This document shows, piece by piece, positions 15,394-64,000 of a stretch of 64,000 nucleotides of DNA; position 1 is the first letter of the stretch; each line of letters begins with the position of its first letter. Source of the DNA: a virus (taxonomy: Duplodnaviria > Caudoviricetes); the IMG/VR virus record IMGVR_UViG_3300032236_001024, positions 1 through 64,000 of that record; one strand, given 5' to 3'. The notes below the pieces were generated by a model. The model had not been told where the DNA came from, ran no database searches, and worked only from the letters and a program-made list of their open reading frames with translations. The position numbers and the translations under genes were made by a program.

Positions 15394-18300
15394 TTAATAC
15401 TCCACTATTACAACACCAGGAGAACCAGAAGCACCATTGGTATTGCCGCCTCCTCCACCAGCACCATAAGCTATACCAATAGTAGAACTTGTGGAATAAC
15501 CACCTCCAGAACCACCCCCTCCAAAAATGGAACTTCCTCCAGTACCACCAGCGTAATTACTCCCACCAGCAGTGTATATACCAGAACCTCCGGAACCTCC
15601 ACCATAATTAATAATACCACCCGAACCAATTCCTCCACTAGAACCACCGCCAGTAGCATATAAACCGCCTTTTCCTCCGGTTGCAGAACAATAAGAACCA
15701 AATGAAGAAGTTCCGCCATCAAATCCTTGTGAACTTGTGCCACCACCATTACCAGCATTGCCAATAGTTAATCGAATAGAGTCAAAAGGATTTACTGTTA
15801 TTATTTTTATTGCGGTTCCACCAGCACCGCCACCACCGCCACCCCAATCGCCACCAGATGCTCCACCACCACCACCGCCACCAACAACAGTTACTTTAAT
15901 TTTGGTGATATTATTAGGAACATTAAATAATTGAGCACTACCAGTGTATTCGAATACTTTAATATTAGTAAATCCACCACCAGTTCCACTACCACCACTT
16001 CCTGGTGATCCAGTATAACCAACTGCAACAGATGCACCAGATGATCCAGTATATGCTCTAGAACCAGTATATCCTTTTGCACCATCACCTATAACACTTA
16101 CTGTTCTTGTATGAAAATTGTCTGGAATACCAGCAAATGAAAATTCATGTTCAGATTGTAAAAAGAATTTTAATTTATATGGTGCTAAAGGAATCGTAGA
16201 ATCGTAAAAATCAGTTCCAAAGAAACTACCATTAGAATTTAATGGTACTGAATTCCAAAAACCTCCTGTATCAGTAACTTTAGCTATTTGTTTTCCTGTA
16301 AAATCTTCAATCGTGTAGTAAAATTGATCTCCAGGTTTACCATCGGTAATCGACCAACCAAAAGTTTGATTTTGTACTACAGAAGATGGATATGTTATTT
16401 TAACATTATTAATAACAGTAGTACTCAATTTTACTACAGCGCCTGAAGAAAAATTAAATCTTAATGATAACTTTCCTACATATCGATAATCAAAAAATGT
16501 ATTATTTAATTTAGTTACATTTCCATCTGAATCAACTGGTTGAAATGTTAATGAAGTATTAAGCCATGGCATATTGTTGCCAGTAATGTATAAATCATAA
16601 TATTCATTTGGTTGTGCGCCAGTAATATAAAAATCAAATGGTTGACCGTATATTATTGTTGATGGGAATGATATACTCAATCCTTTTGCACCACCTGATC
16701 CCCTATATCCTACAGAACCTCTATAACCTTCTAACCCTCGTGATCCATTAAATCCAACAGAACCTTGATAGCCATTAGTTCCTCTTGCACCAGATGATCC
16801 TTGATAACCAATATTTCCTAATGATCCTTGATAACCTTCAGAACCACGATAACCAACGGAACCACGATATCCTGCTCCTGCAGAACCAGTATATCCATCT
16901 TTACCTTGCGAACCTTGATATCCAACAGAAGATGAATAACCTATTGATCCTCTATAACCTGTCAGACCAATACCTAATGAACCAGTATATCCAACAAACC
17001 CAGCTGAACCTTGAAATCCAACAGAACCATTATAACCTACTGAACCACGAACACCTGGTCCTAATGAACCAGTGTATCCAATTATTCCTTGAGAACCTCT
17101 AAATCCTTCAGAACCTTTATAGCCTGAACAGCCTGTATATCCTATTGTTCCTTGAAATCCAGAACTTCCACGATAACCAGCCGAACCTTGAAATCCTACT
17201 GAGCCAAAATAACCTGTTGATCCTCTGACACCTGGTCCTAATGAACCAACATAACCAACTGGTCCTATATCACCAACAGAACCACGATAACCGACTGAAC
17301 CACGAACACCTGGTCCTAATGAACCAACATAACCAACTTCACCTTGTGAACCTTTGAATCCAGTATTTCCACGAAGACCAAGCGAACCTTGATAACCTGC
17401 CGATCCTTGATAACCTTCTGATCCTTGAAATCCTACTGATCCTTGAAACCCTACGGAACCTGAATAACCTCTAGAACCTCTATATCCTTCAGAACCTTGA
17501 TAACCTTCTGATCCTTTATAACCTACTGAACCTTTATAACCTACCGATCCAGTATAGCCAACTATACCTTGTGAACCTTGATAGCCTTCAGAGCCTTTAT
17601 AACCTGCAGAACCTTTATAGCCAGTAACTCCCGGTCCTAATGAACCTGTATATCCAACAAATCCAGCTGAACCTTGAAATCCTACTGAGCCTGAATAACC
17701 TCTAGAACCTCTATATCCTTCAGACCCTTGATAACCTTCAGAGCCTTTATATCCTTCTGAACCTTTATAACCTTCTGACCCACGATAGCCAGTTAATCCT
17801 TGACCCAAAGAACCAGTATATCCAACAATACCAGATGAGCCTCGAAATCCTACAGAACCTTGATAACCTGGACCTCCAGAACCAGTAAAACCAACTATTC
17901 CTTGTGAACCTATAAATCCTACAGAACCTCTATATCCTGCAGAACCTTGATAACCTTCTGATCCTTGATAACCTTCACTTCCTTTGTATCCTTCAGAACC
18001 CTTATATCCTTCCGATCCACGATAACCAGTAAGTCCTGGTCCACCAGAACCAGTATAACCTACCGATCCTTGATAACCTTCTGATCCACGATAACCAGTA
18101 ACTCCTGGTCCTAACGAACCTGTATATCCAACACTACCAGATGAACCTTGATAACCTTCTGATCCACGATAACCAGTAGTTCCTGGTCCACCTGAACCAA
18201 CATATCCAGTATCGCCTCTTGAACCTCTAAAACCTTCTGATCCACGATATCCTGCTGATCCCTGAACACCTGGTCCTAATGATCCAGTATAACCAACAAT

Positions 18301-18567
18301 ACCTATATCACCAACAGAACCACGATAACCCACCGATCCTTGAACACCAGGACCACCTGAACCAGTATAACCAGTTGGTCCTACATCACCAACCGATCCA
18401 CGATATCCTACAGAACCATTATAACCAGGCAAACCATTGACAGCACCAGAAGACCCAGTGTATCCAATACTCAAACTTGTAATACTTGCTATACTTGCAA
18501 CTAATTCTGCAAAATTAGCATTCAAATCTGATGCTTTTAAATAATCAAATTGTGCCCAAATTTTCAT
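15394..18567 (-). CDS. Collagen-like (GYxGSx)n tail fibre with a Gly-rich C-terminal domain
   Basis: About 590 aa of Gly-X-Y repeats, two beta-rich domains, and a C-terminal VTVVGGGGGGG...GGxGGTSSFG Gly-rich tip. Confidence 0.8.
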   Translation of the reverse strand: MKIWAQFDYLKASDLNANFAELVASIASITSLSIGYTGSSGAVNGLPGYNGSVGYRGSVGDVGPTGYTGSGGPGVQGSVGYRGSVGDIGIVGYTGSLGPGVQGSAGYRGSEGFRGSRGDTGYVGSGGPGTTGYRGSEGYQGSSGSVGYTGSLGPGVTGYRGSEGYQGSVGYTGSGGPGLTGYRGSEGYKGSEGYKGSEGYQGSEGYQGSAGYRGSVGFIGSQGIVGFTGSGGPGYQGSVGFRGSSGIVGYTGSLGQGLTGYRGSEGYKGSEGYKGSEGYQGSEGYRGSRGYSGSVGFQGSAGFVGYTGSLGPGVTGYKGSAGYKGSEGYQGSQGIVGYTGSVGYKGSVGYKGSEGYQGSEGYRGSRGYSGSVGFQGSVGFQGSEGYQGSAGYQGSLGLRGNTGFKGSQGEVGYVGSLGPGVRGSVGYRGSVGDIGPVGYVGSLGPGVRGSTGYFGSVGFQGSAGYRGSSGFQGTIGYTGCSGYKGSEGFRGSQGIIGYTGSLGPGVRGSVGYNGSVGFQGSAGFVGYTGSLGIGLTGYRGSIGYSSSVGYQGSQGKDGYTGSAGAGYRGSVGYRGSEGYQGSLGNIGYQGSSGARGTNGYQGSVGFNGSRGLEGYRGSVGYRGSGGAKGLSISFPSTIIYGQPFDFYITGAQPNEYYDLYITGNNMPWLNTSLTFQPVDSDGNVTKLNNTFFDYRYVGKLSLRFNFSSGAVVKLSTTVINNVKITYPSSVVQNQTFGWSITDGKPGDQFYYTIEDFTGKQIAKVTDTGGFWNSVPLNSNGSFFGTDFYDSTIPLAPYKLKFFLQSEHEFSFAGIPDNFHTRTVSVIGDGAKGYTGSRAYTGSSGASVAVGYTGSPGSGGSGTGGGFTNIKVFEYTGSAQLFNVPNNITKIKVTVVGGGGGGGASGGDWGGGGGGAGGTAIKIITVNPFDSIRLTIGNAGNGGGTSSQGFDGGTSSFGSYCSATGGKGGLYATGGGSSGGIGSGGIINYGGGSGGSGIYTAGGSNYAGGTGGSSIFGGGGSGGGYSTSSTIGIAYGAGGGGGNTNGASGSPGVVIVEY
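16690..18470 (-). repeat. Imperfect 18-bp/9-bp coding tandem repeat (GGTTAT-NNN-GGTTCT-NNN)
   Basis: Recurrent CCTTGATAACCTTCTGAT-like units on the plus strand. Confidence 0.85.
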
Positions 18568-21213: not shown

Positions 21214-22260
21214 TTATGATGTAGGGAATCCACTAGCGCCCATAGTTCCAAGCCATGTTGTACCAGCATTATAAGTGTAAATGATGACACTATCAGTATA
21301 TCCGTCTTCTGTTGAAAGTAGTGGACCATTATTTGGATCAATTCCATTTGACCAATATAAATTTGGATTTAGAGACCAATCTAATGTCAACCCACCACCA
21401 TTTGATTGTTTAAAGAATATCGTCATAGTATAAAGTGTGCCATTAACTAAATTTGACTCATCTAAAATTATATTTGTTATAGGTGAATCTAATGTAATAA
21501 CATTAATATTTGATAACGATGGATTGAGTGTTATTGATGATGTTACAACATATGTTGATGTATACTCGCCAAATCCTCTAAATGTAGGATTTTTAATTAT
21601 ATTTGAGTTGAAATTGACAACAGATATTCCAACATTTGAAGTCACAACATCATTTGGTTCAAACATCAATGCATCTCTTGTGTCATTTACTCTGACATAT
21701 CTTCCACCATAATCATTATACACGGGATATTTTTCAAATGTATCTGGATTTAGAACATCAGAAAGACTCAAGAATGAAATAGGTCCGATAGTTCCAACCG
21801 AACCAGTATATCCAACTGATCCGAAATAACCTCCAGACCCCTGATAACCTACTGGACCTCGATTTCCATCTGCACCAGTATTTCCATCTAAACCTTGAGA
21901 ACCCATATAACCATTTGCACCAGCAAGTCCATCCGCACCAGCTGATCCCTGATAACCAACATCTCCTTGAATTCCATCTGCACCAACTGATCCAGTATAA
22001 CCAATTAATCCTTGATCACCAATCGATCCTTTATAACCAGCTTCTCCAGCAGGTCCAGTATCACCTTGTGAACCTTTATATCCTTCAGAACCTCTATAAC
22101 CAGTTACTCCTAAAGAACCTCTATAACCAGTTAATGCAAGTTCTGGTGCATATATCCATCTGGTTCCAGTGGATGTTAGAACTAATACCGAATTAGCTGC
22201 AGCTGTTGTGCCGTCTGGCTGTGTACTATCAATTTGTGAGACGAAAATTTTGGTTGCCAT
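21214..22260 (-). CDS. Short collagen-like fibre protein with a C-terminal beta domain
   Basis: GYRGS/GYQGS repeats at about aa 45-160; C-terminal FFKQSNGGG...DW...W...TYNAGTTWLG fibre-type domain. Confidence 0.7.
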   Translation of the reverse strand: MATKIFVSQIDSTQPDGTTAAANSVLVLTSTGTRWIYAPELALTGYRGSLGVTGYRGSEGYKGSQGDTGPAGEAGYKGSIGDQGLIGYTGSVGADGIQGDVGYQGSAGADGLAGANGYMGSQGLDGNTGADGNRGPVGYQGSGGYFGSVGYTGSVGTIGPISFLSLSDVLNPDTFEKYPVYNDYGGRYVRVNDTRDALMFEPNDVVTSNVGISVVNFNSNIIKNPTFRGFGEYTSTYVVTSSITLNPSLSNINVITLDSPITNIILDESNLVNGTLYTMTIFFKQSNGGGLTLDWSLNPNLYWSNGIDPNNGPLLSTEDGYTDSVIIYTYNAGTTWLGTMGASGFPTS

Positions 22261-31128: not shown

Positions 31129-31136
31129 TATAAATA
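31129..31136 (+). promoter_or_regulatory. Late promoter TATAAATA for the baseplate operon
   Basis: Exact consensus upstream of the gp48-like gene. Confidence 0.85.
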
Positions 31137-31144
31137 ATGTTGTA

Positions 31145-31152
31145 TATTTATA
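31145..31152 (-). promoter_or_regulatory. Late promoter TATAAATA for the gp4 operon
   Basis: Exact consensus on the minus strand. Confidence 0.85.
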
Positions 31153-52410: not shown

Positions 52411-55005
52411 ATGACTATCGCACCAGTAAATGTATCAGCTTCAGTAGTTAGTGATGAAGGTGGCTACGAAAGAAACCCAACAGAACTTAAAAATAATGTA
52501 GTTGTAAATAAAAGACCCTTTTCTTTCGGTCAGCATTGGCCTAATGTTATAGAAAGAGATGGCGATGTTGCATTATCAATGTCAAAATTGAAAAATAAGG
52601 TAGTGGCATATAATGTATATGCTTCTGGGTACAAAGCTGAATATCCTTATAACTCAACTCCAGTAATAAGAATTGGTGATAATGCAACTGACACTGATTC
52701 TGGTTTATTTCCATATATGACTGATAATGATTGGTTTTCAGTAGATGTTGCTTTTGTAGCAGAAACTCAATCAATGATATCTAATGAAGTTTTTAGAGTA
52801 TTTTTTAAATACAACTCAAATGGTTTGAATGATATTCCATATGTAAGCGATACAGTAACTTCAATTGTTGCCAAAGGAACTCAATCAAAAAAAGAATGGG
52901 TTACTTTAGGAGATACTAGAGTAGATTATGGAAATTTAGCTTTTATTAGTAGTGCTTTTGATCCTTATGGTATACCAGTAGGTGATAAAAAAGTAGATAG
53001 TTATGATTTATTACCTGATCCAGATTCTACTTTTTCTTCAATTTACACGTATTGGGTAAAGGTAAGTTTGCCTGGTGCAACAAATGAATTATATAGAAAA
53101 TATCAGGTAATGGATAGAAATCTTAATAGTTATGTTTGGCTTCCAGCATCACGTTCACCTAGTCCAGATTTAAATTATAGTGTATACCAAACTACCGGAA
53201 CAGGGACAACAAAAGCTATAATACCATCTAGTATTGGTGGTGATTTAAATGTTTTTGGTATAAATGAACCTTTACCAAGAGGAAATGCTACAGGTGTGGA
53301 TGGTGTATATCCATATTCTGTTGGTGATTATATTACAAAATTAGAATATAATTCTGATAAAAGATTGCAATATATGACATACCAACTACAAAGTGTTTCG
53401 GGTGCTGATTTAGAACCACAATTTAATCTTGTGTGGAAACAGGGCGAACAATATTTTGACAATTTTGATTCTTTTGTAGTTGCTACCGTTGGTCAACAAA
53501 CTACTTATCCATATCCATTAAAACATTTTACAAAGACAAGAGAAAATGTTCCAGAAAGTTCAACAACTGGTGGAACTATAATATATTCTTTACCAACTCA
53601 GCAATCTGAATATAGCTCATTTGTTGTTGGTCGTAAATATTATATAGAAAATTATGGTGCTTCAAACTATGGAACATTTACAGAATATACAATAACATCA
53701 ACAACAGCTTATACTTCAGCTACATCTTTACCAAAAGCAAATGTTGTTGGTCAAAGAGCTTTAGTAGGAACTGGATTTACTTCTACTTCAAAATATTATT
53801 GGTATACTGTTGAACGAGGCACAACAATAACCTCACCTGTTAATGCTAGTGGAAGTACTATAACAACACCTGTAGTTATTCCTATAAAAATATGGACTAG
53901 ATCAGCTACTTATGTAAATTCAATTTCGACGATAGATAAATTAGTAAAATCTTTACCGTTTGCAGATGAAAATCCTGTTGGAACTATTGTTTATATGGAT
54001 ACTGGTAGAGGTTATTTTGATCAATATAAAGTAGTATTAGCAAATCCTAGTAGTTATGAACCAAATGATCGATATGAAAACTTTGAAAATTATGGAAATT
54101 TTCAAACCAGTTATATTGGTGCGAGCAAATATGCTTATAAAGATGATGATGGAACAATTAAAGGATGCCAATACTATGAATGGAAAGGTAATAATGGAGG
54201 AACAACTAAAAAGAAATGGGTATTAACTGACAATTATGACCCAAATCTAAAAGTTGGTAATCCTATTAATTATGTTGCTGGAACTATCAATGATTTGCCA
54301 GACCCAAATCTATATTCTGTCGGAACTACAGTATTATATACAAATTTTGATCGTATAACGAATTATTATTCGGTCGATCTTGATACATCAAATACTAAAA
54401 ATATTTTATGTAAGGTATTTTATCATCCAAAAAATAAAGAGGTATGGGCATCTGCACAATATACTGGAGCATCTACTACTGCTGCAAATAGAAGATGCCA
54501 AGTAATTATAAGAAGAATACAATATTGGCCCCCAGGAACATCAACAATGGATCAAGATTATCCTGCTTATGCTAGTTATTATGGTTATACTCCATATTAT
54601 ACTAATATTGATCCTAAAATAGTAAGAGTATTTCAAGAAATTGATCATAGAGAACCAGATGAAACAACTGCAAAGGCTTATCAATCCTTACTTTCTAGTA
54701 ATCAAATGACTATAGATGGTATTGCAAATGAAAGAATAAATTTAAATCCAAGTGCAAATCCTTTAAATACTAGAATTTTTAATAGTAATCAAAAGCTTAG
54801 AGTAAAAATGGCTACAAGACTTGCAGCTTACAAATATAATGATCCACAACAATACCCATTGTATCCATGCATAACACATGTTAATTATTATGATGATGTT
54901 AAATGGAATGATCCAAGTCTTGGGTTAGGTTCAAAACCACCAAATAATATTACTACTGTCCCATCTGCCGAATGGACATTCGCCACTCGACCATTTACTG
55001 GATAA
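52411..55005 (+). CDS. Uncharacterised Tyr-rich fibre/adhesin-like protein
   Basis: 864-aa ORF with recurring LP...xVGxxxY motifs; follows the S74 fibre. Confidence 0.6.
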   Translation: MTIAPVNVSASVVSDEGGYERNPTELKNNVVVNKRPFSFGQHWPNVIERDGDVALSMSKLKNKVVAYNVYASGYKAEYPYNSTPVIRIGDNATDTDSGLFPYMTDNDWFSVDVAFVAETQSMISNEVFRVFFKYNSNGLNDIPYVSDTVTSIVAKGTQSKKEWVTLGDTRVDYGNLAFISSAFDPYGIPVGDKKVDSYDLLPDPDSTFSSIYTYWVKVSLPGATNELYRKYQVMDRNLNSYVWLPASRSPSPDLNYSVYQTTGTGTTKAIIPSSIGGDLNVFGINEPLPRGNATGVDGVYPYSVGDYITKLEYNSDKRLQYMTYQLQSVSGADLEPQFNLVWKQGEQYFDNFDSFVVATVGQQTTYPYPLKHFTKTRENVPESSTTGGTIIYSLPTQQSEYSSFVVGRKYYIENYGASNYGTFTEYTITSTTAYTSATSLPKANVVGQRALVGTGFTSTSKYYWYTVERGTTITSPVNASGSTITTPVVIPIKIWTRSATYVNSISTIDKLVKSLPFADENPVGTIVYMDTGRGYFDQYKVVLANPSSYEPNDRYENFENYGNFQTSYIGASKYAYKDDDGTIKGCQYYEWKGNNGGTTKKKWVLTDNYDPNLKVGNPINYVAGTINDLPDPNLYSVGTTVLYTNFDRITNYYSVDLDTSNTKNILCKVFYHPKNKEVWASAQYTGASTTAANRRCQVIIRRIQYWPPGTSTMDQDYPAYASYYGYTPYYTNIDPKIVRVFQEIDHREPDETTAKAYQSLLSSNQMTIDGIANERINLNPSANPLNTRIFNSNQKLRVKMATRLAAYKYNDPQQYPLYPCITHVNYYDDVKWNDPSLGLGSKPPNNITTVPSAEWTFATRPFTG

Positions 55006-55017
55006 TGGAAAATAAAA

Positions 55018-55347
55018 ATGTCAATAAAAACAAACTTAATAGTAGATCAAGGCGCAAATTTTGTTTACAATATCTATCTGATAGATGCTGATGGCAATCC
55101 TTTTAACATTTCAAATTATACTGCTAATGCTCAGATAAGAAGAACATATACTTCTTATTCATATGTAACGATGAATACTGCTATAACTGGTGTTTCTGGT
55201 CTTATTACTCTTTCTATGAATGCAGCAACGACAGCCAATCTTACAAATACTCGTTATGTATATGATCTTGAATTGAAGAATAGTGCGAATGTAGTTTCTA
55301 GAATTGTAGAAGGAACTGTAACAGTAAATCTTGGAGTGACACGATAA
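55018..55347 (+). CDS. Small Ig-like virion structural protein
   Basis: NLIVDQGANF, YVYDLEL and RIVEGTVTVNLGVTR. Confidence 0.75.
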   Translation: MSIKTNLIVDQGANFVYNIYLIDADGNPFNISNYTANAQIRRTYTSYSYVTMNTAITGVSGLITLSMNAATTANLTNTRYVYDLELKNSANVVSRIVEGTVTVNLGVTR

Positions 55348-55550
55348 TGCGTGATCAAAGAATTACTGTTACATTATTTAATGGCGTTATAATTACTTTA
55401 GCAAGAACTGTTCCCTTGACGACCACTGTTATCGTCAAGGAAAATAATGGAACTATTGAAACTCTAAATTCACTAAAACAAAGACAGTATGGGCTCTTTG
55501 ATACTCCAACAGTATTGCCTGTAGTTGCACAAGAGCCATTTAGTTTTTAA
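55347..55550 (+). CDS. Hypothetical protein
   Basis: 67-aa ORF TAATG-coupled to the upstream gene. Confidence 0.55.
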   Translation: MRDQRITVTLFNGVIITLARTVPLTTTVIVKENNGTIETLNSLKQRQYGLFDTPTVLPVVAQEPFSF

Positions 55551-58391
55551 TTACTGAACCTTGAATACAAATGATCCCATGTGATCACAGAGTATTGTTG
55601 GGTCTGCCCAAATCCTAAATCCTTTAGCAGAAGCTTTCCTACAGAAATCCAAATCTTCTGAGAAAGTGTTATTATGATCGATAGCAGATGTATAGACAAA
55701 CTGTGGATAACCAATATCTACCATAACCTGCTTCTTGATTAGAACACATCCAAAACCACATGCTCCTGCTTCAACAAGTTCAGTCTTTCCTCTGAGCTTA
55801 TCATAGGGCATATGAGTATAGCCGCCCATATTATTTCTTTCGAAGATTTCGATAGTCTGGTGTTCATGGAACCTCTGGCGATAAATTCCAGAAACGATAT
55901 CTCTATCATATGAAATGAGCTTTGCCAAAGTATCTGGTGGGAAAGAAACATCATAATCAACTGAGAAAAGATAATCCCAATTTCCTTTGACAATCCAATC
56001 TGCAATCAGATTACGAACCTGATCGACATTGTATCCATAAAAGAACTGGAAATCAGCTTCTACATTAGGAGGCAAAATCTGATCATAGATTGCTTTGAAA
56101 GTTGTAGGCTCAATATTCTTTGCAGTAGGAATAGCGATAAGAACACGCTTCTTCCTCGCTGATTCTATAACATTAGCAGCAATACCAGTTCTTTCCAACA
56201 ACTCACCCATAGTTTCAACCTTTGGCATGTTATCTTGTACCAAAGGAGCTTCTTCTACCTTTTTATTCTTCAACCAATCAGTAAAATTTGTTACACGATC
56301 AACCATATCATCACTCACCTTCTTTTCACTTTGTTTAGTTGTAATTTTTTCTGCGTTTTTGTTTTGAAGTTCGCCATGAACTTTATAATCATTTAGTGGG
56401 TTCTTATCATTGTACATATAAAAAATATCTTGGACAGCAACAACTTTGTTTGGGTCAGCTTGCTCAATGATATTATAGAATGTGGCATTGTCTCCACCAG
56501 CCTTGAACCAGTTACCATCTTCGTCCTTAAAGACAGATTCATCGACAGCCTCAACAAGATTCTTTCTAAATACTCTAAGATGAGGATATGGCATACCCCA
56601 ATTAAACTTGTGTAGACGATATGCTCTGAGCTTTCGAATATGTGATGGATATGGCTGTGCAATCAATGGAATGTTATCAGCCATTGACCAACAACTACCA
56701 TACGCATATTCTGTCTTCTCGTTTGCAAAAAGACTATTGTAATAATTGAAGATGTTGTTATCAGGCATGAGTGCATCATCACCATCAAGCAACATAACAA
56801 TATCATCACTTTCAATGTGCTTGAAAGCTTCTATTTGATTGCGAACTGCGCCTTTATTTTCAAGATTTTTTACGACATAAAACTTGAGTTGCAACTCAAC
56901 AGGATATTTAGAAATGCATCTACGAATTTCTTCATAAGAATTGTCTGTAGAGCAATCATCAATAATAATATGTCTATAGTTATCATAATCCTGTGTAGCA
57001 ACAGAATCAATCATATTTTCGATATAATCTTTGCTGTTATAAAGAGGACTTACAATAACAATTCTTTGTTCATTTCCTTCCTTACGAGTATTCCATTCGA
57101 TATTGTTGCTGAACCTGCGACCAAATACACGATGAACTTTATCATTGATGTATGTTACCTTACGGTATTCATCAACTGGTAAGTAAAGCTTAAAGGTTCG
57201 AAAGAACAACTGCTTCCACTGAAGAGCAACAGTATCCCATGTGCATACATCCTTGATGATGTTACAATGATATTGCTTTTGCTGATGTAAATATCTGTTA
57301 TGATATGCATTCAAAGTCATTTCGACAAAGCGATGTACTTGTACATCTGGATTAATATTTGGAAACAAACCATTTGGCTCAATAGCATAATCAATAAAAT
57401 AAGATGAATTTTCGATAGCTGTTTCTTCCAACGCACCAAAACGAGTAGCAAGGATAGGTACATTATAAGCTAATGCTTCTAGTGTAGAGATACCAAATGT
57501 CTCAGGGAAAGCACCAGGAAAAATAAAGAAAGAAGCTTTAGATAATGTCTCAGCAATTTCCTTCTGAGAAATAATACCAGTAAATTCAATATCAATCTGC
57601 TTATACTTTGGGTCTTTGGAAATTACTTGCCACTTCTTTCCCTGATCATCCAAAGGCGCATCTGAACGAAACTGATAAAAACCACCAATGACTTTAAGCT
57701 TTGCGTTTGGAGCATGTTGCTTGACAGCAGGCCAAATTCTATCAATAAGAGGAATCATTCCCTTGGTCAGGGATGCATTATAAACAAAAAGATTTGGGTC
57801 TTTATCTGCGATGTTTACTTCATCAAAATACTTCACCATACCATTTCTGGTCTGGAAAATTTTATTCTTGAGAACTTCAAAGTTTCTACGATTTCCGTGA
57901 TCACAATTTCCAACATATGATGTATGAAAATCACTGAGCGTGAAAATTTTGTCGATATATCCTTGTACTGCAAGGTCTTCTACATTCTGATCACCATTAC
58001 AGAATGTATCATGCATCCAAAGAATTTTCATCTTTGCATTTTTACGAATACCTTCAAACAATTTACAAGGAAATCTTGTTGCGTGATTGTAAGCTTCATA
58101 GTAGTGCTCTGGAACAAAAGGAACAACAGTTCTAGAAGCAATAATAATATCAAAGTTTTCATCTGGTCTAATACTTTCAACAGGGCGATATGTCACACCA
58201 GCATAGACACCGGACTTGGCATCATCCACATCACAAGCATTAAAGACTGTAACAGGAAAACCAAGGTTTGCTAATTCTTTTGACATAAGAATTACAGCTG
58301 ATTCAGAACCACCCAATCCTTTTTTGGAAAGAGTTGTTCCATCATAAACTAGACCAATAAGATCAAGGATTGCAATAGAAGGATATTTCAT
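55551..58391 (-). CDS. Three-domain glycosyltransferase (GT4 + GT2 + GT2-like)
   Basis: GT-B domain: GLGGSESA and FPETFGISTLEA. GT-A domain: SPLYNS..YI, IIDDCSTD and LDGDD. Second GT-A domain: LIAIPT, VRNLI, FSVDYDV, GFGCVLI and EDLDFC. Confidence 0.9.
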   Translation of the reverse strand: MKYPSIAILDLIGLVYDGTTLSKKGLGGSESAVILMSKELANLGFPVTVFNACDVDDAKSGVYAGVTYRPVESIRPDENFDIIIASRTVVPFVPEHYYEAYNHATRFPCKLFEGIRKNAKMKILWMHDTFCNGDQNVEDLAVQGYIDKIFTLSDFHTSYVGNCDHGNRRNFEVLKNKIFQTRNGMVKYFDEVNIADKDPNLFVYNASLTKGMIPLIDRIWPAVKQHAPNAKLKVIGGFYQFRSDAPLDDQGKKWQVISKDPKYKQIDIEFTGIISQKEIAETLSKASFFIFPGAFPETFGISTLEALAYNVPILATRFGALEETAIENSSYFIDYAIEPNGLFPNINPDVQVHRFVEMTLNAYHNRYLHQQKQYHCNIIKDVCTWDTVALQWKQLFFRTFKLYLPVDEYRKVTYINDKVHRVFGRRFSNNIEWNTRKEGNEQRIVIVSPLYNSKDYIENMIDSVATQDYDNYRHIIIDDCSTDNSYEEIRRCISKYPVELQLKFYVVKNLENKGAVRNQIEAFKHIESDDIVMLLDGDDALMPDNNIFNYYNSLFANEKTEYAYGSCWSMADNIPLIAQPYPSHIRKLRAYRLHKFNWGMPYPHLRVFRKNLVEAVDESVFKDEDGNWFKAGGDNATFYNIIEQADPNKVVAVQDIFYMYNDKNPLNDYKVHGELQNKNAEKITTKQSEKKVSDDMVDRVTNFTDWLKNKKVEEAPLVQDNMPKVETMGELLERTGIAANVIESARKKRVLIAIPTAKNIEPTTFKAIYDQILPPNVEADFQFFYGYNVDQVRNLIADWIVKGNWDYLFSVDYDVSFPPDTLAKLISYDRDIVSGIYRQRFHEHQTIEIFERNNMGGYTHMPYDKLRGKTELVEAGACGFGCVLIKKQVMVDIGYPQFVYTSAIDHNNTFSEDLDFCRKASAKGFRIWADPTILCDHMGSFVFKVQ

Positions 58392-58407
58392 AACTACCTC
58401 ACGGTTT

Positions 58408-58415
58408 CATAAATA
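58408..58415 (+). promoter_or_regulatory. Late promoter variant CATAAATA for the collagen fibre operon
   Basis: One mismatch to the consensus; intergenic. Confidence 0.6.
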
Positions 58416-58430
58416 AAGGGATCATGTGTA

Positions 58431-58438
58431 TATTTATG
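58431..58438 (-). promoter_or_regulatory. Late promoter variant CATAAATA for the glycosyltransferase
   Basis: One mismatch to the consensus; 40 bp upstream of the GT ATG, which has a GAGGT RBS. Confidence 0.6.
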
Positions 58439-58457
58439 TTCAAAAAATGGGAACGAT

Positions 58458-61091
58458 ATGTCATTAGAAATACGTCATATAGAATTTGTGGGTGATGGAG
58501 AAACTACACGTTTCAATACAGGAATACGTGATATCAATTCTACCAATCTTTTAGTATTTGTCAACGGGTTTATTCAAGCCCCTGGCGTTGATTATCAAGC
58601 TGAATATTATGATGTTTCTTTTGCAGTTGCTCCATTTCTTGGTTCTGATATAGAAATTCGTTATATTAACACAACTGATGTTGGTTATCAAGGTTCTGTA
58701 GGTTATCAGGGTTCTCAAGGATTAGATGGTGCAGAAGGATTACAGGGTCTTGATGGTGTTCAAGGACCAGTAGGTTATCAAGGTTCGACTGGTGAACAAG
58801 GTCCAGCTGGAACTCCTGGTGGTGAAAAAGGTTATACTGGTTCTGAAGGTATAGGCTACACTGGTTCAATAGGTATTGGTTATGCTGGTTCTAAGGGAGA
58901 GGCTGCAGCCCCAAGATCGAGTCAATTAATAACAACAGACAGTGGTTCTGTTTACATTTTAAATGAATATGTTTTAGATTCTAAACATATCATTGTAACA
59001 TTAAATGGTCTTGTACAAATTCCAAATGTAGATTATGTTGTCTTAGATGGAAATCAATTAACATTTTATTCACAAGTTTATCCAAATGTAAATCTCGAAA
59101 TTAAATATTTTGGACCTGCGCCAAGTTATCAAGGATCAGTTGGATTTGTAGGATCAGTTGGTTATCAAGGTTCTATAGGATCAGTTGGTTATCAAGGTTC
59201 TACTGGTATTGTTGGATATAGTGGTTCTGTTGGTGAGCAAGGACCACCAGGTGGTGAAAGAGGATATGTAGGTTCGATAGGTTATACTGGTTCTACTGGT
59301 GCAGGATATACTGGTTCTATAGGACCATCTGGCGCACCAAAAATAACAAAATTATTTACTGCTAATGGTACTGACACATTATTTGATACTGGTGAAACTA
59401 TTACAGAAGCAACAAATGTTTTTGTTATGGTCAATGGTCTTGTTCTTATTCCTAATACAGATTATACAATTGTTGGTGGCACAAAAGTTAATATAACATC
59501 CCCACCATATAGTAGTTCTACTGTTGAAATTAGAATATTTCAATCGGCTGGTTATATTGGTTCAACAGGTTATTATGGGTCTGTTGGATATCAAGGTTCA
59601 GCTGGTGTTAGCTATGTCGGTTCATCTGGATTTGTTGGTTCGGTAGGATTTGTCGGTTCAATTGGTTATCAAGGTTCTATTGGTTATACTGGTTCCATGG
59701 GTCCAATGGGACCACCTAATGGTTATACAGGTTCACAAGGACCAATTGGATATCCAAAAGAAAATCAAGTAATAACTGTAAATGGTACAGATCATATATT
59801 CAATTTAAATAAAAAAATAGACAATACTAAGTCAATATTCGTTTTTATTAATGGTCTTGGTCTTGTTCCAGATGATGATTATACAATAGTAAATGATGGA
59901 ACCCAAATATCTCTAAACACAATACCTTTTAATGGTTCTACAATTGAAATAAGATATTTTGCTGATGCAACTGGTTATCAAGGATCATCTGGTTATAAAG
60001 GTTCAGAAGGTTATCAGGGATCATCTGGATATAAAGGTTCGGAAGGTTATCAAGGCTCTGTAGGTTATCAAGGATCAAAAGGTGCGACCGGAGACCCTGG
60101 TGGTCCACAAGGATATACTGGTTCAGTTGGATATGTTGGATCAATAGGAACAGGTTATGCTGGATCGCAAGGTCCAGCGGGATCACCAAAAGCAAAACAA
60201 GTATTTACAGCTGATGGTATAGTTAAGACTTACACATTGAATACAAATGTTGAAGCTACTCAATCAATATTTGTTATGCTTAATGGTTCTGTTCTTATTC
60301 CAGATGATGACTATACCATTCAAAATAATAATACTCTTATTTTGAATGCATTACCAACTAAAAATTCTAGTATTGAAGTAAGATATTTTGGAAGCACTGG
60401 TTATATTGGTTCTTCTGGTTATCGTGGTTCAGTTGGATATCAAGGTTCAGCTGGTGCAGCTGGTATTGCACAAGCATATGTTTCACCATTTGCTCCTTCT
60501 GTTTCAGAAAGAATTCCTGGCGAATTGTGGTGGGATACTGATAATGGTATTTTAAACATTTATTATGATAGTGAAAAAACTTGGGTAGGACTTGCGGAAG
60601 GACCAAGAGGACCATATGGTTATACTGGTTCGGGTGGATTGGGTTATACTGGTTCAATAGGTATTGGTTATGTCGGATCATTAGGATACACTGGTTCAGT
60701 TGGATTTATTGGTTCAGTTGGTTATGTAGGTTCTAAAGGTTATGCCGGATCATTAGGATTTACAGGATCGATTGGATTTGCAGGATCAGTTGGTTATGTT
60801 GGATCAATTGGTTCTGTAGGTTATGTTGGATCAAAAGGTAATGGTTATAATGGCTCATTCGGATATACTGGTTCTATTGGATATACAGGTTCATCTGGGT
60901 ATATTGGTAAAGATGGTTATTCTGGTTCTGTAGGATATACAGGATCAGTTGGAGATGTTGGAGAAATTGGTTATACTGGTTCGAAAGGATATGGTTGGAC
61001 TGGTCCAGATATAACTATAACAATTTCTACTTTGTTGCCGCCCATTTCTGGTGGAAAAGATGGTGATATATGGTATAGGTATACAGTATAA
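58458..61091 (+). CDS. Collagen-like fibre with (GYxGSx)n segments alternating with four ~60-aa beta domains
   Basis: Four copies of F..DG....F.......VF.NG....P..DY........P.....IEIRYF separated by Gly-X-Y runs; C-terminal GGKDGDIWYRY. Confidence 0.8.
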   Translation: MSLEIRHIEFVGDGETTRFNTGIRDINSTNLLVFVNGFIQAPGVDYQAEYYDVSFAVAPFLGSDIEIRYINTTDVGYQGSVGYQGSQGLDGAEGLQGLDGVQGPVGYQGSTGEQGPAGTPGGEKGYTGSEGIGYTGSIGIGYAGSKGEAAAPRSSQLITTDSGSVYILNEYVLDSKHIIVTLNGLVQIPNVDYVVLDGNQLTFYSQVYPNVNLEIKYFGPAPSYQGSVGFVGSVGYQGSIGSVGYQGSTGIVGYSGSVGEQGPPGGERGYVGSIGYTGSTGAGYTGSIGPSGAPKITKLFTANGTDTLFDTGETITEATNVFVMVNGLVLIPNTDYTIVGGTKVNITSPPYSSSTVEIRIFQSAGYIGSTGYYGSVGYQGSAGVSYVGSSGFVGSVGFVGSIGYQGSIGYTGSMGPMGPPNGYTGSQGPIGYPKENQVITVNGTDHIFNLNKKIDNTKSIFVFINGLGLVPDDDYTIVNDGTQISLNTIPFNGSTIEIRYFADATGYQGSSGYKGSEGYQGSSGYKGSEGYQGSVGYQGSKGATGDPGGPQGYTGSVGYVGSIGTGYAGSQGPAGSPKAKQVFTADGIVKTYTLNTNVEATQSIFVMLNGSVLIPDDDYTIQNNNTLILNALPTKNSSIEVRYFGSTGYIGSSGYRGSVGYQGSAGAAGIAQAYVSPFAPSVSERIPGELWWDTDNGILNIYYDSEKTWVGLAEGPRGPYGYTGSGGLGYTGSIGIGYVGSLGYTGSVGFIGSVGYVGSKGYAGSLGFTGSIGFAGSVGYVGSIGSVGYVGSKGNGYNGSFGYTGSIGYTGSSGYIGKDGYSGSVGYTGSVGDVGEIGYTGSKGYGWTGPDITITISTLLPPISGGKDGDIWYRYTV

Positions 61092-62521
61092 TGCCTGTGT
61101 ATGTAAAAAAAGATAATAAATGGCAAATCGTTGCATCTTCATATAATGAGCCATCACCAACATTATTTAATAATGTGAACGGCGAATGGAGAGAAACTAG
61201 GTCTGGATGGGTAAATGTAAAGGGTGAATGGCAAAAATTTTATCAAAAAACTCCTATGGTAAAAAATAAATTAAAAAATTTTGTTTTTTTAGGTGATTCA
61301 TTATCATATGGAACTGGATTGCCAGTAAGTCAACAATTCACAACATTAATACAAAATCATTTTAATGGAATTGATAATAATGGAAATAATAATGTTGTTA
61401 GATCATTGATGGTTGATGATAGATCAACAACTGGAGGAGAAAATAGATTTATTACATCTTCTGGTGTTAAATATACTAATACTGGCATTTTTTCTCCTGT
61501 ATATGATGATAAAAGAATCAGAAATACAGCAATAACAATACCAGCTGGAGAGTATATTGATATACCTGTAAATAAAGCAAATGGTAAATTATTTAATATA
61601 TCTGTCAGTGGAAAAAATTTTGTTGGTGAGATAAGTTCTGTATGGTTAACTTGGCAGTTTGGTACTCGTGGTTATTTTGAAAATTTAATTTTACATGAAA
61701 CAATAGATAGTAATATTACAACACATGGAAATGTATATTATGGGAATCCGCTTTATGCTAATTTTTGGGGTGGTGATACTGAAAATTTTTATGATTATTC
61801 TATAGATTTCGATTCAAAAGCAACTTATGTTAGAATAAAAGTTACTTCTGGTGAATTACGAATTAATTCTGTTCATAGTATGTCAAATTTTCCACTTTAT
61901 GCATCAGAAAAAAATGTTGGTATTGTTCAAGTAATTGCTAGAGATGGTTATACATTCGAAGATTTTCTTAATGTTCCAAGACAAGAAATTAGAAATAATA
62001 TTCTATATAAACAATATTATGATGATAATACAAATAGTAATGCTACCCCTGTTCTTATAGTCCAAGCTGGACTAATGGATATAGTAAAATTAGGTCGAAA
62101 TGCATTAGATTTTTTTCAGTATTTAGAATACGGAATTTTATTACATCATACTCCAACTAATGATATAGTATATGGAGGATATTCGACAGATTCTAATAGT
62201 ACAAGTATTACAGCATATGATATTGTTTTAACAATACCTCACCCACCAAGTCAATTAAGTCCTTATTTTAAAATTTATAATGAAAACATAAAAGCTATAA
62301 GTGATGTATTTCATTTAATGGCTAATAGACATAATTTGGATGTAGTCGATTTAAGTACACTAGATATGGGGATAGATTGTTATCAACTTACTCTTGATAG
62401 AATAAACCCAAATTACAAAGGTTCTGTAAAAATAGCAAATAAATACATTGAGGATTTAGGTTTAGCTTCATTCCAAAACAATTCAAGTCAAGAATACTTA
62501 TTACCCGCTAGAGGATTATAA
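61091..62521 (+). CDS. SGNH/GDSL-fold protein with a fibre-docking N-terminus, probably non-catalytic
   Basis: VFLGDSLSYG (block I), AGLMD (block III) and DRINPN (block V, His replaced by Asn); N-terminal YVKKDNKW...WVNVKGEWQKF. Confidence 0.65.
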   Translation: MPVYVKKDNKWQIVASSYNEPSPTLFNNVNGEWRETRSGWVNVKGEWQKFYQKTPMVKNKLKNFVFLGDSLSYGTGLPVSQQFTTLIQNHFNGIDNNGNNNVVRSLMVDDRSTTGGENRFITSSGVKYTNTGIFSPVYDDKRIRNTAITIPAGEYIDIPVNKANGKLFNISVSGKNFVGEISSVWLTWQFGTRGYFENLILHETIDSNITTHGNVYYGNPLYANFWGGDTENFYDYSIDFDSKATYVRIKVTSGELRINSVHSMSNFPLYASEKNVGIVQVIARDGYTFEDFLNVPRQEIRNNILYKQYYDDNTNSNATPVLIVQAGLMDIVKLGRNALDFFQYLEYGILLHHTPTNDIVYGGYSTDSNSTSITAYDIVLTIPHPPSQLSPYFKIYNENIKAISDVFHLMANRHNLDVVDLSTLDMGIDCYQLTLDRINPNYKGSVKIANKYIEDLGLASFQNNSSQEYLLPARGL

Positions 62522-62529
62522 AAAAATAA

Positions 62530-64000
62530 ATGGCACAATTAATTTTTCCAGATAATCCTTTAATTGGGGCTACAACTACTACTGGTGGTTATGTTTGGCA
62601 GTGGGATGGAGAGCGTTGGTTAAAAGTACCAACTGATTATCGTGGTTCTGCCGGATATGTCGGATCATTTGGTTATACTGGTTCTACTGGTGCTGGATTT
62701 ACAGGATCAAGAGGATTTGTAGGTGCTCCTAGTGCAATTCAAATAATAGAATCGACAGGTGCAAGTTCTTACACTCTTGATAGATTAGTTGCAGATGCAT
62801 TATCATTATTCGTTATTGTAAACGGTTCTTTCTTAATAGCAAATGTTGATTATACTGCTTCTAGTAGTACAATAACATTTAACAATATTCCACAAACAAA
62901 ATCTAATATCGAAATTATATTTTGGGATGTAGCTGGTTATTATGGTTCAACTGGTTATCAAGGATCAGCAGGTTATACTGGTTCTGCTGGTGTTGGATAT
63001 ACTGGTTCTGTTGGTGCTGTTGGTTCTGTAGGTTATCAAGGTTCTGTTGGTGTACAAGGACCACCAGGTGGTGAAAGAGGATATGCTGGTTCTAAAGGTG
63101 ATAGAGGTTTCTTTGGCTATAGCGGTTCATCTGGGTATATTGGTTCACAAGGTGATATAGGTTATACTGGATCAGCTAGTACTGTTGTAGGTCCACAAGG
63201 TCCACGAGGTATAAATCCATCAAAAGGAATAGATTTATATAATTCATCATCATATCAAAATTTAACTGGCGTTACAGTAGATACTGCTACAAATTTAAAA
63301 CAAACTGTTGATAGTACTATTAATGATGCTGGTATTGATAATGTATTTTATTTTAATGGTGATGGTGAAAGATATGTTGAAGGCGTATACAAATTAAATT
63401 TATTTGGTTATCAAAGCGTTTCATTATCAGTATACAGTGGTGATGGGCTTTGGGCTCCAATTCCAACAAATCCTATACTTATTGAATATTCTATTGATCC
63501 TGATAATTATGGATGGCAAAATTTTGCTATTATTAATCCATCATTATTAACTATAGGTTTATGGAATACATTAACATTTAATATTCCAAATGAAGCAAAA
63601 AATCCAACTGGTGTTTATTTCCGTTATATCCAATATGTAAATGGTGGAATTGGAAAAGATAATTATCTTTTAACTGATTTAGTTTTAAATCCATTAATTG
63701 GTTATACTGGATCGCAAAGTTATACTGGTTCAGCTGGTTATACTGGTTCGTCTGGTTATCAAGGATCAATCGGTTATTCTGGTTCTGTTGGTGATACTGG
63801 TGGCACTGGTTATCAAGGTTCAGAAGGCTATCAAGGTTCAGAAGGTTATCAAGGGTCTGTTGGATATACTGGTTCTACAGGTAATCGAGGAATTCAAGGT
63901 GAAATAGGTCCAAAAGGTGATACAGGTGATACTGGTTATCAAGGATCAGCAGGATTTAGAGGACAAACAGGATTTAAAGGTTCATATGGTGAACTTGGTG
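62530..64000 (+). CDS. Collagen-like fibre protein, truncated by the window end
   Basis: Not in the ORF track. The ATG at 62530 gives MAQLIFPDNPLIGATTTTGGYVWQWDGERW..., with GYxGS runs, one beta domain and a jelly-roll-like insert. I saw no in-frame stop before the window end. Confidence 0.85.
   Translation, partial: MAQLIFPDNPLIGATTTTGGYVWQWDGERWLKVPTDYRGSAGYVGSFGYTGSTGAGFTGSRGFVGAPSAIQIIESTGASSYTLDRLVADALSLFVIVNGSFLIANVDYTASSSTITFNNIPQTKSNIEIIFWDVAGYYGSTGYQGSAGYTGSAGVGYTGSVGAVGSVGYQGSVGVQGPPGGERGYAGSKGDRGFFGYSGSSGYIGSQGDIGYTGSASTVVGPQGPRGINPSKGIDLYNSSSYQNLTGVTVDTATNLKQTVDSTINDAGIDNVFYFNGDGERYVEGVYKLNLFGYQSVSLSVYSGDGLWAPIPTNPILIEYSIDPDNYGWQNFAIINPSLLTIGLWNTLTFNIPNEAKNPTGVYFRYIQYVNGGIGKDNYLLTDLVLNPLIGYTGSQSYTGSAGYTGSSGYQGSIGYSGSVGDTGGTGYQGSEGYQGSEGYQGSVGYTGSTGNRGIQGEIGPKGDTGDTGYQGSAGFRGQTGFKGSYGELG

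Follow-up and report, generated by a model that had tools for sequence, protein, structure and literature searches.

Collagen-like surface glycoproteins with dedicated glycosyltransferases (GTs) are known in Bacillus, where BclA is accompanied by rhamnose and anthrose GTs. In Clostridioides difficile, the role of SgtA in the glycosylation of BclA3 has been confirmed (PMC7157674). In chlorovirus PBCV-1, the soluble multi-transferase chains A064R and A111/114R produce a virion protein's glycan independently of the host machinery (PMC7826918, PMC9614988), and Mimivirus R699 is a viral collagen glucosyltransferase (PMC9546862, PMC12279948). In mycobacteriophages, virion proteins are modified by GTs that the phage itself encodes (Freeman et al. 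2023, PMC10527164, as summarised in PMC12619734). In pelagimyophages, GTs lie inside the fibre region and structural proteins contain collagen repeats, the GTs being read as host O-chain modifiers (Zaragoza-Solas et al. 2020, PMC7029224). Among aquatic jumbo phages, the 'moraphages' have four core GT families according to a 2025 paper, which names virion glycosylation as only one possibility (PMC12619734). Systems of both kinds, virion glycosylation encoded by a virus and a collagen-like glycoprotein with its own GT, are thus already known. Here I describe a locus in the IMG/VR virus record IMGVR_UViG_3300032236_001024, whose first 64,000 nucleotides are called the window below. A 946-residue fusion of three GT domains (P0001; 55551-58391, minus strand), delimited by the open reading frame (ORF) call, Pfam and PHROG matches and an AlphaFold2 (AF2) model, is encoded divergently from collagen-like fibres with the repeat (G-Y/F-x-G-S-x)n (GYxGS fibres). 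With moderate confidence, and on genomic evidence, I favour the reading that this GT would glycosylate the phage's own collagen-like fibres in the cytoplasm.

The record is 202,141 bp in length with direct terminal repeats, and its estimated completeness is 100%. The phage is a T4-like myovirus; genes in the 35-52 kb region match the baseplate hub, wedge subunit and long-tail-fibre PHROGs, and gp32 and PhoH are also encoded. Its gp6-like wedge protein is 41% identical to that of Stenotrophomonas phage DLP_6, 37% identical to those of the Sinorhizobium phiM12 type, and 34-35% identical to those of Pelagibacter/Methylophilales myophages. A nucleotide search with the GT locus gave zero matches in 50,697 phage records, and the best DNA matches come from lake-water and other metagenomes. 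None of the cultured phages is close to it.

Co-occurrence of the GT fusion with GYxGS repeats

The initial annotation set the co-occurrence of this GT with GYxGS repeats as a test, and the result was strongly positive in both directions and across deep lineages. In about 30 IMG/VR loci with a GT of 54-98% identity, a GYxGS gene lies directly upstream of the GT gene in divergent orientation wherever upstream sequence exists. The adjacent fibre gene varies widely in length across these loci, from ~540 to 2270 aa (about four-fold). Judging from the sequences, the co-varying partner of the GT is the stalk repeat. From the fibre side, 41 IMG/VR records of at least 29 kb were picked solely by a (GYxGSx)3 DNA pattern and searched with the GT profile (the pattern-scan records L115, L120 and L133 lay outside these 41). 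A full GT was found in 27 of them. Twelve records have no GT match; either they are only 10-27% complete or they are false pattern hits that lack G[YF]xGS (G009 and G026). Two have a weak domain match only: G003 carries a collagen ORF with a single G[YF]xGS, and G031, 20% complete, carries a stand-alone gene resembling the third GT domain. Among the true GYxGS records at 60% completeness or more, all five have the GT. From the GT side, GYxGS repeats were found in all five further GT-bearing jumbo-phage records that lack an adjacent collagen gene, and a reversed-pattern control found none in four of these five.

How deep is this pairing? The complete 181-kb genome G036 has a gp6 that is 36% identical to that of the present phage. 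Four records of 210-328 kb (G001, G024, G028 and G040) encode a baseplate-J-type protein of 1141-1213 aa, which is alignable over ~100 N-terminal residues at 26-32% identity. The GTs of these five records are 48-56% identical to P0001, and G036 and G001 both retain a GYxGS gene divergent from the GT. Since gp6 is 36% identical or barely alignable while the GTs are 48-56% identical, the pairing extends over three or more deep myovirus lineages. These genome comparisons give good support to a functional link of the GT with the GYxGS fibres.

Is the collagen link positional only? If so, the GT might act on another acceptor, such as the capsid, sheath, baseplate, non-collagen parts of the fibres, a host protein or a small molecule. 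Mycobacteriophage virion glycans sit on the C-termini of capsid and tail-tube proteins, in the summary given by PMC12619734, and the GT4 relatives BshA and MshA take small-molecule acceptors. In jumbo-phage loci other than that of G001, the GT has large Thr/Ser/Gly-rich neighbours (T+S+G fraction 0.30-0.48); some have Gly-X-Y runs, and often the nearest ones are without such runs. However, the genome-level co-occurrence is specific to G[YF]xGS repeats in both directions, and in three lineages the gene next to the GT, in divergent orientation, encodes GYxGS repeats. I consider another acceptor quite unlikely.

Domains and distribution of the GT fusion

Domain 1 (residues 1-425; 57117-58391, minus strand) has a GT4-type GT-B fold. 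Its residues 200-330 match PF00534 (Glycos_transf_1) with 50.7 bits (cut-off 26.4) and PF13692 with 44.9 bits (cut-off 27). In an alignment of 30 homologues with 48-97% identity, the two Glu residues of the EX7E motif are E297, which is nearly invariant, and E305, which is invariant. In Foldseek searches, Domain 1 resembles BshA, MshA, PimB' and glycogen synthase, with template modelling scores by target of 0.62-0.68 against BshA, PimB' and BA1558. The Pfam score, the EX7E motif and the modelled fold place Domain 1 as a predicted member of CAZy family GT4 (GT-B, retaining). Domain 2 (residues 440-685; 56337-57074, minus strand) has a GT2-type GT-A fold. Its residues 446-614 match PF00535 (Glycos_transf_2) with 75.3 bits against a cut-off of 23.3, and D479 and D536-G-D538-D539 are invariant in the 30 homologues. 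A profile search against the PDB matched GalT1 (5hea), TarS, chondroitin synthase and heparosan synthase. With PF00535 and the DxD motif, Domain 2 is a putative CAZy GT2 enzyme (GT-A, inverting). It is followed by a poorly conserved, disordered linker (residues 686-744; 56160-56336, minus strand), where the predicted local distance difference test score (pLDDT) is below 50 and the consensus is mostly undefined.

Domain 3 (residues 745-946; 55554-56159, minus strand) was assigned by the AF2 model, structure comparison and motifs. The mean pLDDT is 80 for the whole of P0001, which shows three folded domains, and 88.8 for Domain 3 alone. D812-x-D814, E912-D913 and H937 are invariant in the 30 homologues, and the C-terminal part of P0001 matches phrog_1574 and phrog_12406 (glycosyltransferase). 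In Foldseek, Domains 2 and 3 jointly resemble enzymes with two GT-A domains: heparosan synthase, chondroitin synthase and LARGE1. Structure comparison of Domain 3 gave Z-scores of 19.9 for the LH3 accessory domain, 19.5 for STIV A197 (2c0n), 18.2 for Mnn9 (3zf8), 17.8 for residues 249-455 of Mimivirus R699 and 17.3 for COLGALT1, and of ~15 for the generic GT2 enzymes TarP and SpsA. PF03452 (Anp1) is matched by all 30 family members at E ≤1 (best 1.2e-7), with 13.9 bits for P0001 itself against a cut-off of 28.8. PF00535 has no match in residues 745-946 of P0001 and matches weakly in 8 of the 30 homologues (best E 0.0096). A canonical GT2 assignment of Domain 3 was set aside, because no Pfam match is above the cut-off and the fold is nearest to A197, Mnn9 and the accessory domain of collagen GTs. 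By its modelled fold, DxD motif and C-terminal His, Domain 3 is predicted to be an A197/Anp1 (GT62)-like GT-A domain. Its resemblance to collagen GTs in the model is suggestive only, being one of fold sub-class and partly to non-catalytic domains. Stand-alone relatives of Domain 3 with ~200-230 aa are common in phages, including cyanophages. Thus, of the GT4-GT2-GT2 order in the initial annotation, the 946-aa fusion of three GTs, the GT4 and the first GT2 stand, and the third domain is A197/Anp1-like instead.

The protein search of the family listed 1852 proteins at E ≤0.001. Short relatives (~900-960 aa) are 64-97% identical to P0001. Long forms of 1330-1620 aa are ~47-51% identical and have the architecture GT4-GT4-GT2-GT-A, with the second GT4 at the N-terminus and often an FkbM methyltransferase at the C-terminus. 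In the distant T4-like lineage of G036, the GT is split (77320-80837) into a GT4 ORF of 437 aa and a GT2+GT-A ORF of 734 aa. In G011, G019 and G037, the GT match holds stop codons, which may represent split genes, frameshifts or decay. The domain shuffling among the relatives fits an enzyme that builds a defined oligosaccharide stepwise. The interpretation in the initial annotation is partly supported as a whole. Its assembly line fits the three domains with intact invariant motifs and the GT4 and methyltransferase that relatives add.

The family is almost restricted to phages, as far as the sequence searches reach. A pattern-seeded scan of prokaryotes (one genome per species, 185,579 species) gave a single GT locus on a 12-kb contig. 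This contig (NZZP01000034.1, L213) was binned as a metagenome-assembled genome of Gammaproteobacteria, and its GT gene is divergent from three GYxGS collagen genes. Since the layout is that of the phage GT|GYxGS arrangement, the contig is evidently a misbinned phage contig. In the protein search of the 50,697 deposited phage records, no full-length GT relative was found, only partial single-domain matches; GYxGS fibres gave three partial matches only, covering 19-24% of the query at ~33% identity. No account of the GT fusion family, or of GYxGS fibres in connection with it, was found in the literature that could be searched.

The near restriction to phages bears on the main rival explanation, in which the target is a glycan of the host envelope (O-chain, capsule or receptor), made or modified by the GT on lipid-linked intermediates during infection. 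This would block superinfection or the re-adsorption of progeny to infected cells and debris, and the GT and the fibres would be tuned to the same receptor. It is the published reading for GTs in the pelagimyophage host-recognition cluster (PMC7029224). In sequence searches of NCBIfam and the PDB, the GT2 and GT4 domains match polysaccharide, teichoic-acid and LPS (lipopolysaccharide) enzymes best, far below the cut-offs; an envelope-directed GT2 is encoded elsewhere in the phage genome; and both in this phage and in a sister clade the GT is faced by sigma70-like promoters, as described below. On the other hand, a nearly phage-only family is unexpected for a borrowed O-antigen enzyme. The GT co-occurs with the stalk repeat though the lengths of the fibre genes vary and the deep lineages presumably infect different hosts, and the tight divergent GT|fibre pairing is kept across lineages. 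Also, the maximum Kyte-Doolittle 19-residue mean of P0001 is 1.33 and no membrane segment is predicted, which makes P0001 a predicted soluble protein. Host-surface modification by P0001 therefore seems unlikely, although it ranks first among the rivals, before another protein or small-molecule acceptor and then DNA. A system of the Gtr seroconversion type (GtrA/GtrB/GtrV) was also considered and not recognised: there is a weak phrog_841 match (E 6.4e-5) at the start of the GT2 domain, no predicted membrane segment, and the phage is a T4-like lytic one.

Divergent spacer, fibre genes and other modification genes

The P0001 gene was initially described as the only minus-strand gene in 33 kb. It is the sole minus-strand gene, but the plus-strand block is larger, spanning 31162-114549 (~83 kb by a greedy gene call). 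The shared 66-bp region with a late-type sequence on each strand, also part of the initial annotation, was confirmed. Two copies of CATAAATA lie in this divergent spacer (58392-58457, from the ORF boundaries). The plus-strand copy (58408-58415) faces the fibre gene, whose ATG is 42 nt further on, and the minus-strand copy (58431-58438) faces the GT gene, with 39 nt to the ATG. The fibre-facing box is kept in all 16 distinct related spacers, and a NATAAATA box faces the GT in 8 of the 16. The genome has 53 copies of YATAAATA, and for 36 of them a gene on the same strand, among these neck, baseplate and fibre genes, starts no more than 60 nt downstream. Because 36 of the 53 copies are upstream of starts in a genome that is 95% coding (~5% non-coding), the box is not due to chance. 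The boxes in the GT|fibre spacer have the features of a predicted T4-type late promoter: they are TATAAATA-like, their distances of 39 and 42 nt fall inside the 20-45 nt expected before late genes, and such boxes precede structural genes. Back-to-back or overlapping TATAAATA boxes were also found between other divergent pairs, at 31129-31152 and at genome positions 152901-152902 and 162984-162987; the GT|fibre spacer therefore follows a general pattern of this phage's late promoters. In the spacers of G036 and G001, CTAAATA-like boxes face the fibre gene and nothing clear faces the GT.

The promoter scan also gave a sigma70-like match of 11/12, TTGACA-16-(TG)TAGAAT, at 58537-58564 on the minus strand, which faces the GT and lies within the conserved 5' part of the fibre gene's coding sequence. 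Genome-wide there are 27 sigma70 matches of at least 11/12, and 22 of them are inside genes; the function of this match is therefore uncertain, and it may be a chance match kept by coding constraint. Across the whole locus, the sigma70 scan gave 20 matches against 16.6 expected, which is at the noise level; two were retained as leads, the 11/12 match and the intergenic TTGCCT-17-TATAAT of a sister clade. Judging from these boxes, the GT may be synthesised early, late or at both times. Since a late box is present in 8 of 16 spacers and sigma70-like matches face the GT, 'late' is not usable as strong support. Thus, of the late GT proposed initially, the late-type box facing the gene stands and late timing is one possibility among others. 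Early synthesis would not contradict the glycosylation of the fibres. At the other end of the GT gene (55347-55553), the last nucleotide of the plus-strand tail operon is 55550 and the first of the GT stop codon is 55551, so that the two are convergent with zero spacer. No terminator-like hairpin was found at the 55550/55551 junction, the sole site in 54800-58700 being 54811-54827 on the minus strand. Late transcription of the tail operon may continue into the GT gene in antisense direction.

Several points speak against the glycosylation of the fibres by P0001. The GT-facing late box is missing from half of the 16 spacers. In a sister clade with a GT of ~63-66% identity, a sigma70-like TTGCCT-17-TATAAT takes the place of the late box, 38-44 nt before the GT start, and the sigma70-like match at 58537-58564, 146 nt upstream of the GT, is identical in the four closest relatives. 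The fold similarity of Domain 3 gives no acceptor specificity. Its best match, residues 293-525 of LH3, is what I take to be a non-catalytic accessory domain, though Domain 3 keeps the DxD, the ED and the His. In jumbo phages, adjacency is looser, the GT often lying beside Thr/Ser/Gly-rich proteins or a few kb from the GYxGS genes. Finally, shared ancestry or cassette transfer inflates the co-occurrence counts.

What are the candidate acceptors? The first fibre gene (P0002; 58458-61091, plus strand) encodes 877 aa with collagen-like segments and globular modules, and carries 50 G[YF]xGS motifs. Its match to Pfam Collagen (PF01391) is 128 bits against a cut-off of 27.2, and that of P0004 is 86.5 bits. 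P0002 resembles beads on a string, with five globular modules of ~90 aa between the (G-Y/F-x-G-S-x)n segments; the module at residues 301-360 matches the T7 tail-fibre N-terminal domain (PF03906, 60 bits). P0004 (62530-64000 in the window, plus strand) is the start of a 3098-aa collagen-like fibre gene that ends at 71826 in the genome. Its residues 270-386 form a globular insert that matches Reelin subrepeat B below the threshold (PF21471; E 2.8e-5, 24.3 bits against a cut-off of 27). The fibre array downstream of the GT extends from 58.5 to ~98 kb (~40 kb). Two more GYxGS collagen-like genes were identified in the window by ORF calls with a motif count or a box scan, both on the minus strand: one of 1057 aa with 73 G[YF]xGS motifs (15394-18567), which adjoins the neck genes, and one of 348 aa (21214-22260) with TATAAATA 32 nt upstream. 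In the four collagen-like genes of the window, 189 'GS' dipeptides were counted, in line with the initial estimate of 150-200 G-S acceptor sites.

Genome-wide, nine genes have runs of at least four Gly-X-Y triplets, including those for proteins of 3098 and 2929 aa. In the 1532 triplets of these runs, X is Ser in 39%, Tyr in 31%, Phe in 6% and Pro in 3.7%, and Y is Thr in 20%, Val in 15%, Gln in 11% and Lys in 5%; Pro is also low at Y. The dominant pattern is G-(Y/F)-x strictly alternating with G-S-x. By their Gly-X-Y runs and Pfam scores, the fibres are predicted collagen repeat proteins, whose fold may be a triple helix or another Gly-rich fold, for example of the polyglycine-II type. The repeat Ser codon is TCN in 566 of 572 G[YF]xGS motifs (AGY 1%), against 24% AGY over all serines of the genome, while jumbo-phage relatives use both AGY and TCN at this position. 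The TCN bias here and the mixed codons in the relatives suggest local repeat expansion in each lineage and selection for Ser across lineages.

Between the two fibre genes, P0003 (61091-62521, plus strand) encodes a non-collagenous protein of 476 aa that is translationally coupled to the first fibre. It holds a GDSL/SGNH-like motif, FLGDSLSYGTG, without a Pfam, NCBIfam or PHROG match. From this motif, P0003 could be an esterase-type head on a collagen stalk, perhaps one that modifies the receptor. Pfam and PHROG likewise gave zero matches for 52411-55005, and NCBIfam gave nothing for Domain 3 or the three upstream ORFs and no above-cut-off match for the GT.

Does the phage make its own sugars? 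Outside the window, a gene resembling GDP-mannose-4,6-dehydratase (144411-145451, minus strand) adjoins a methyltransferase gene (143725-144414, minus strand), and a second epimerase/reductase gene lies at 158167-159090 on the minus strand. Together these may form a phage-encoded 6-deoxyhexose pathway. At least five further GT genes are present, at 113611-114549, at 129268-129969 and three at 167126-169528. The last three (minus strand) are consecutive and encode small GT-A-like proteins, two matching Glyco_tranf_2_4 and the third weakly matching PF00535 (E 0.004); the last of them has a TATAAATA box 24 nt upstream and is a candidate late glycosylation module. This gene set fits a phage that makes its own glycans, to judge by the annotations. 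Comparable sugar genes are commonly taken as LPS-related auxiliary genes of the host (PMC7029224). The sole PF13640-type 2-oxoglutarate-Fe(II) oxygenase of the phage is a 345-aa protein fused to DUF6817 (151829-152866, minus strand). Its TATAAATA box, 28 nt upstream, is back-to-back with the late box of a divergent gene at 152937. The idea that the fibres are hydroxylated and then glycosylated was dropped, this oxygenase being absent from five other GT-bearing phages.

The GT might instead glycosylate modified bases of the phage DNA against restriction, in the manner of the T4 alpha- and beta-glucosyltransferases. I know of no precedent among DNA GTs for an enzyme of three or four domains with a methyltransferase beside fibre genes. 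DNA modification is a common role of phage GTs (Pyle et al. 2024, as cited in PMC12619734), and the sigma70-type promoters facing the GT are possibly early. However, a PF00303 thymidylate-synthase-type hydroxymethylase is absent from the complete 202-kb genome, a control search being positive in 10 of 14 reference genomes, which argues against DNA glucosylation of the T4 type. No Pfam family of the T4 alpha- or beta-glucosyltransferases is listed for P0001 at E ≤0.01, with distant GT-B kinship possible. Tet_JBP gave zero matches in the genome, but the control also matched nowhere, so that this search is uninformative. DNA modification, which the initial annotation kept as an alternative, is thereby weakened and now appears very improbable.

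How would the fibres be glycosylated, then? In the favoured reading, P0001 would be a soluble single-chain assembly line for a glycan, with one retaining-type GT4 and two GT-A domains. It would act in the cytoplasm of the infected cell on the fibre proteins, before or during their assembly. The acceptors would be the hundreds of regularly spaced hydroxyls on the Pro-poor (G-Y/F-x-G-S-x)n chains, namely Ser at X, Thr at Y, and Tyr. The product may be a short oligosaccharide of at most three sugars, or four sugars and a methyl group in the longer relatives, and its role may be helix stabilisation, shielding or adhesion. I infer the fibre as acceptor, the modified residue, the sugars used, the timing and the role of the sugar. 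A more specific version is tentative and rather doubtful: a nearly phage-only assembly line would O-glycosylate the fibre Ser (X) and/or Thr (Y), the sugar stabilising or shielding the fibre as hydroxyproline or glycosyl-threonine does in other collagens, and the divergent GT|fibre cassette would move between unrelated myovirus families.

Comparison with known systems

If the more specific version holds, the locus would be the first in a bacteriophage to encode a system for collagen glycosylation, and the tail fibres of abundant freshwater phages would be glycoproteins. Glycosylated fibres would extend virion glycosylation, so far known in chloroviruses, mimiviruses and mycobacteriophages, to T4-like phages. 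For the abundant freshwater myoviruses and jumbo phages that are uncultured, they would bear on adsorption, stability, resistance to proteases and grazers, and host recognition. It would also become necessary to revise how GTs of phage host-recognition islands are usually annotated, namely as auxiliary genes for host LPS modification. The locus would also offer a simple system of bacterial type for the stabilisation of Pro-free collagen helices, and a soluble enzyme with a defined hexapeptide repeat could serve glyco-collagen materials.

The collagen GTs LH3, COLGALT1 and R699, with which a cell or a virus modifies its own collagen, are structurally nearest to Domain 3 (Z 17-20, ~190 aligned residues, root-mean-square deviation 3.0-4.1). 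However, sequence identity is 11-19% and those enzymes act on hydroxylysine, whereas Lys makes up 5% of the Y positions in the phage fibres and the PF13640-type oxygenase is not common to the other GT phages. STIV A197 (2c0n), a minimal viral GT-A protein with a DxD, is the only PDB sequence match of Domain 3 at E <0.01 (E 0.0012) and its top Foldseek match (E 3e-10; Z 19.5, root-mean-square deviation 2.2 over 163 residues). Unlike P0001, A197 is a stand-alone protein of 203 residues from a crenarchaeal virus, with ~20% identity. To my knowledge, the acceptor of A197 is itself unproven.

The mycobacteriophage GTs are separate single-domain proteins of siphoviruses of Actinobacteria, with glycans on the capsid and tail-tube C-termini, going by PMC12619734. 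In contrast, the candidate acceptors here are collagen-like fibres of T4-like and jumbo myoviruses, and the GT is a fused multi-GT. The pelagimyophages are aquatic and T4-like and have GTs among fibre genes, as in the present phage; PMC7029224 stresses GT8, without this fusion family or the GYxGS link.

In the SgtA-BclA3 system, as here, a Pro-poor, hydroxyl-rich collagen-like surface fibre is encoded beside a soluble GT, and O-glycosylation there is cytoplasmic. The differences are that the fibre here belongs to a phage tail-fibre array and there to the spore exosporium, and that the repeat is G-Y/F-x-G-S-x instead of G-x-T. Unlike SgtA, P0001 is a three-domain fusion of a nearly phage-only family, and the glycosylation here is a predicted one. 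The GTs of PBCV-1 are likened to P0001 by architecture: their acceptor is the major capsid protein of a eukaryotic virus, which bears atypical N-linked glycans, and the best match of P0001 to a PBCV-1 protein in BFVD is weak and to Domain 3 only (Q98454, E 4.5e-10). A064R and A111/114R combine two GTs with a methyltransferase, or three GT functions, in one chain, and the long relatives of P0001 also end in a methyltransferase.

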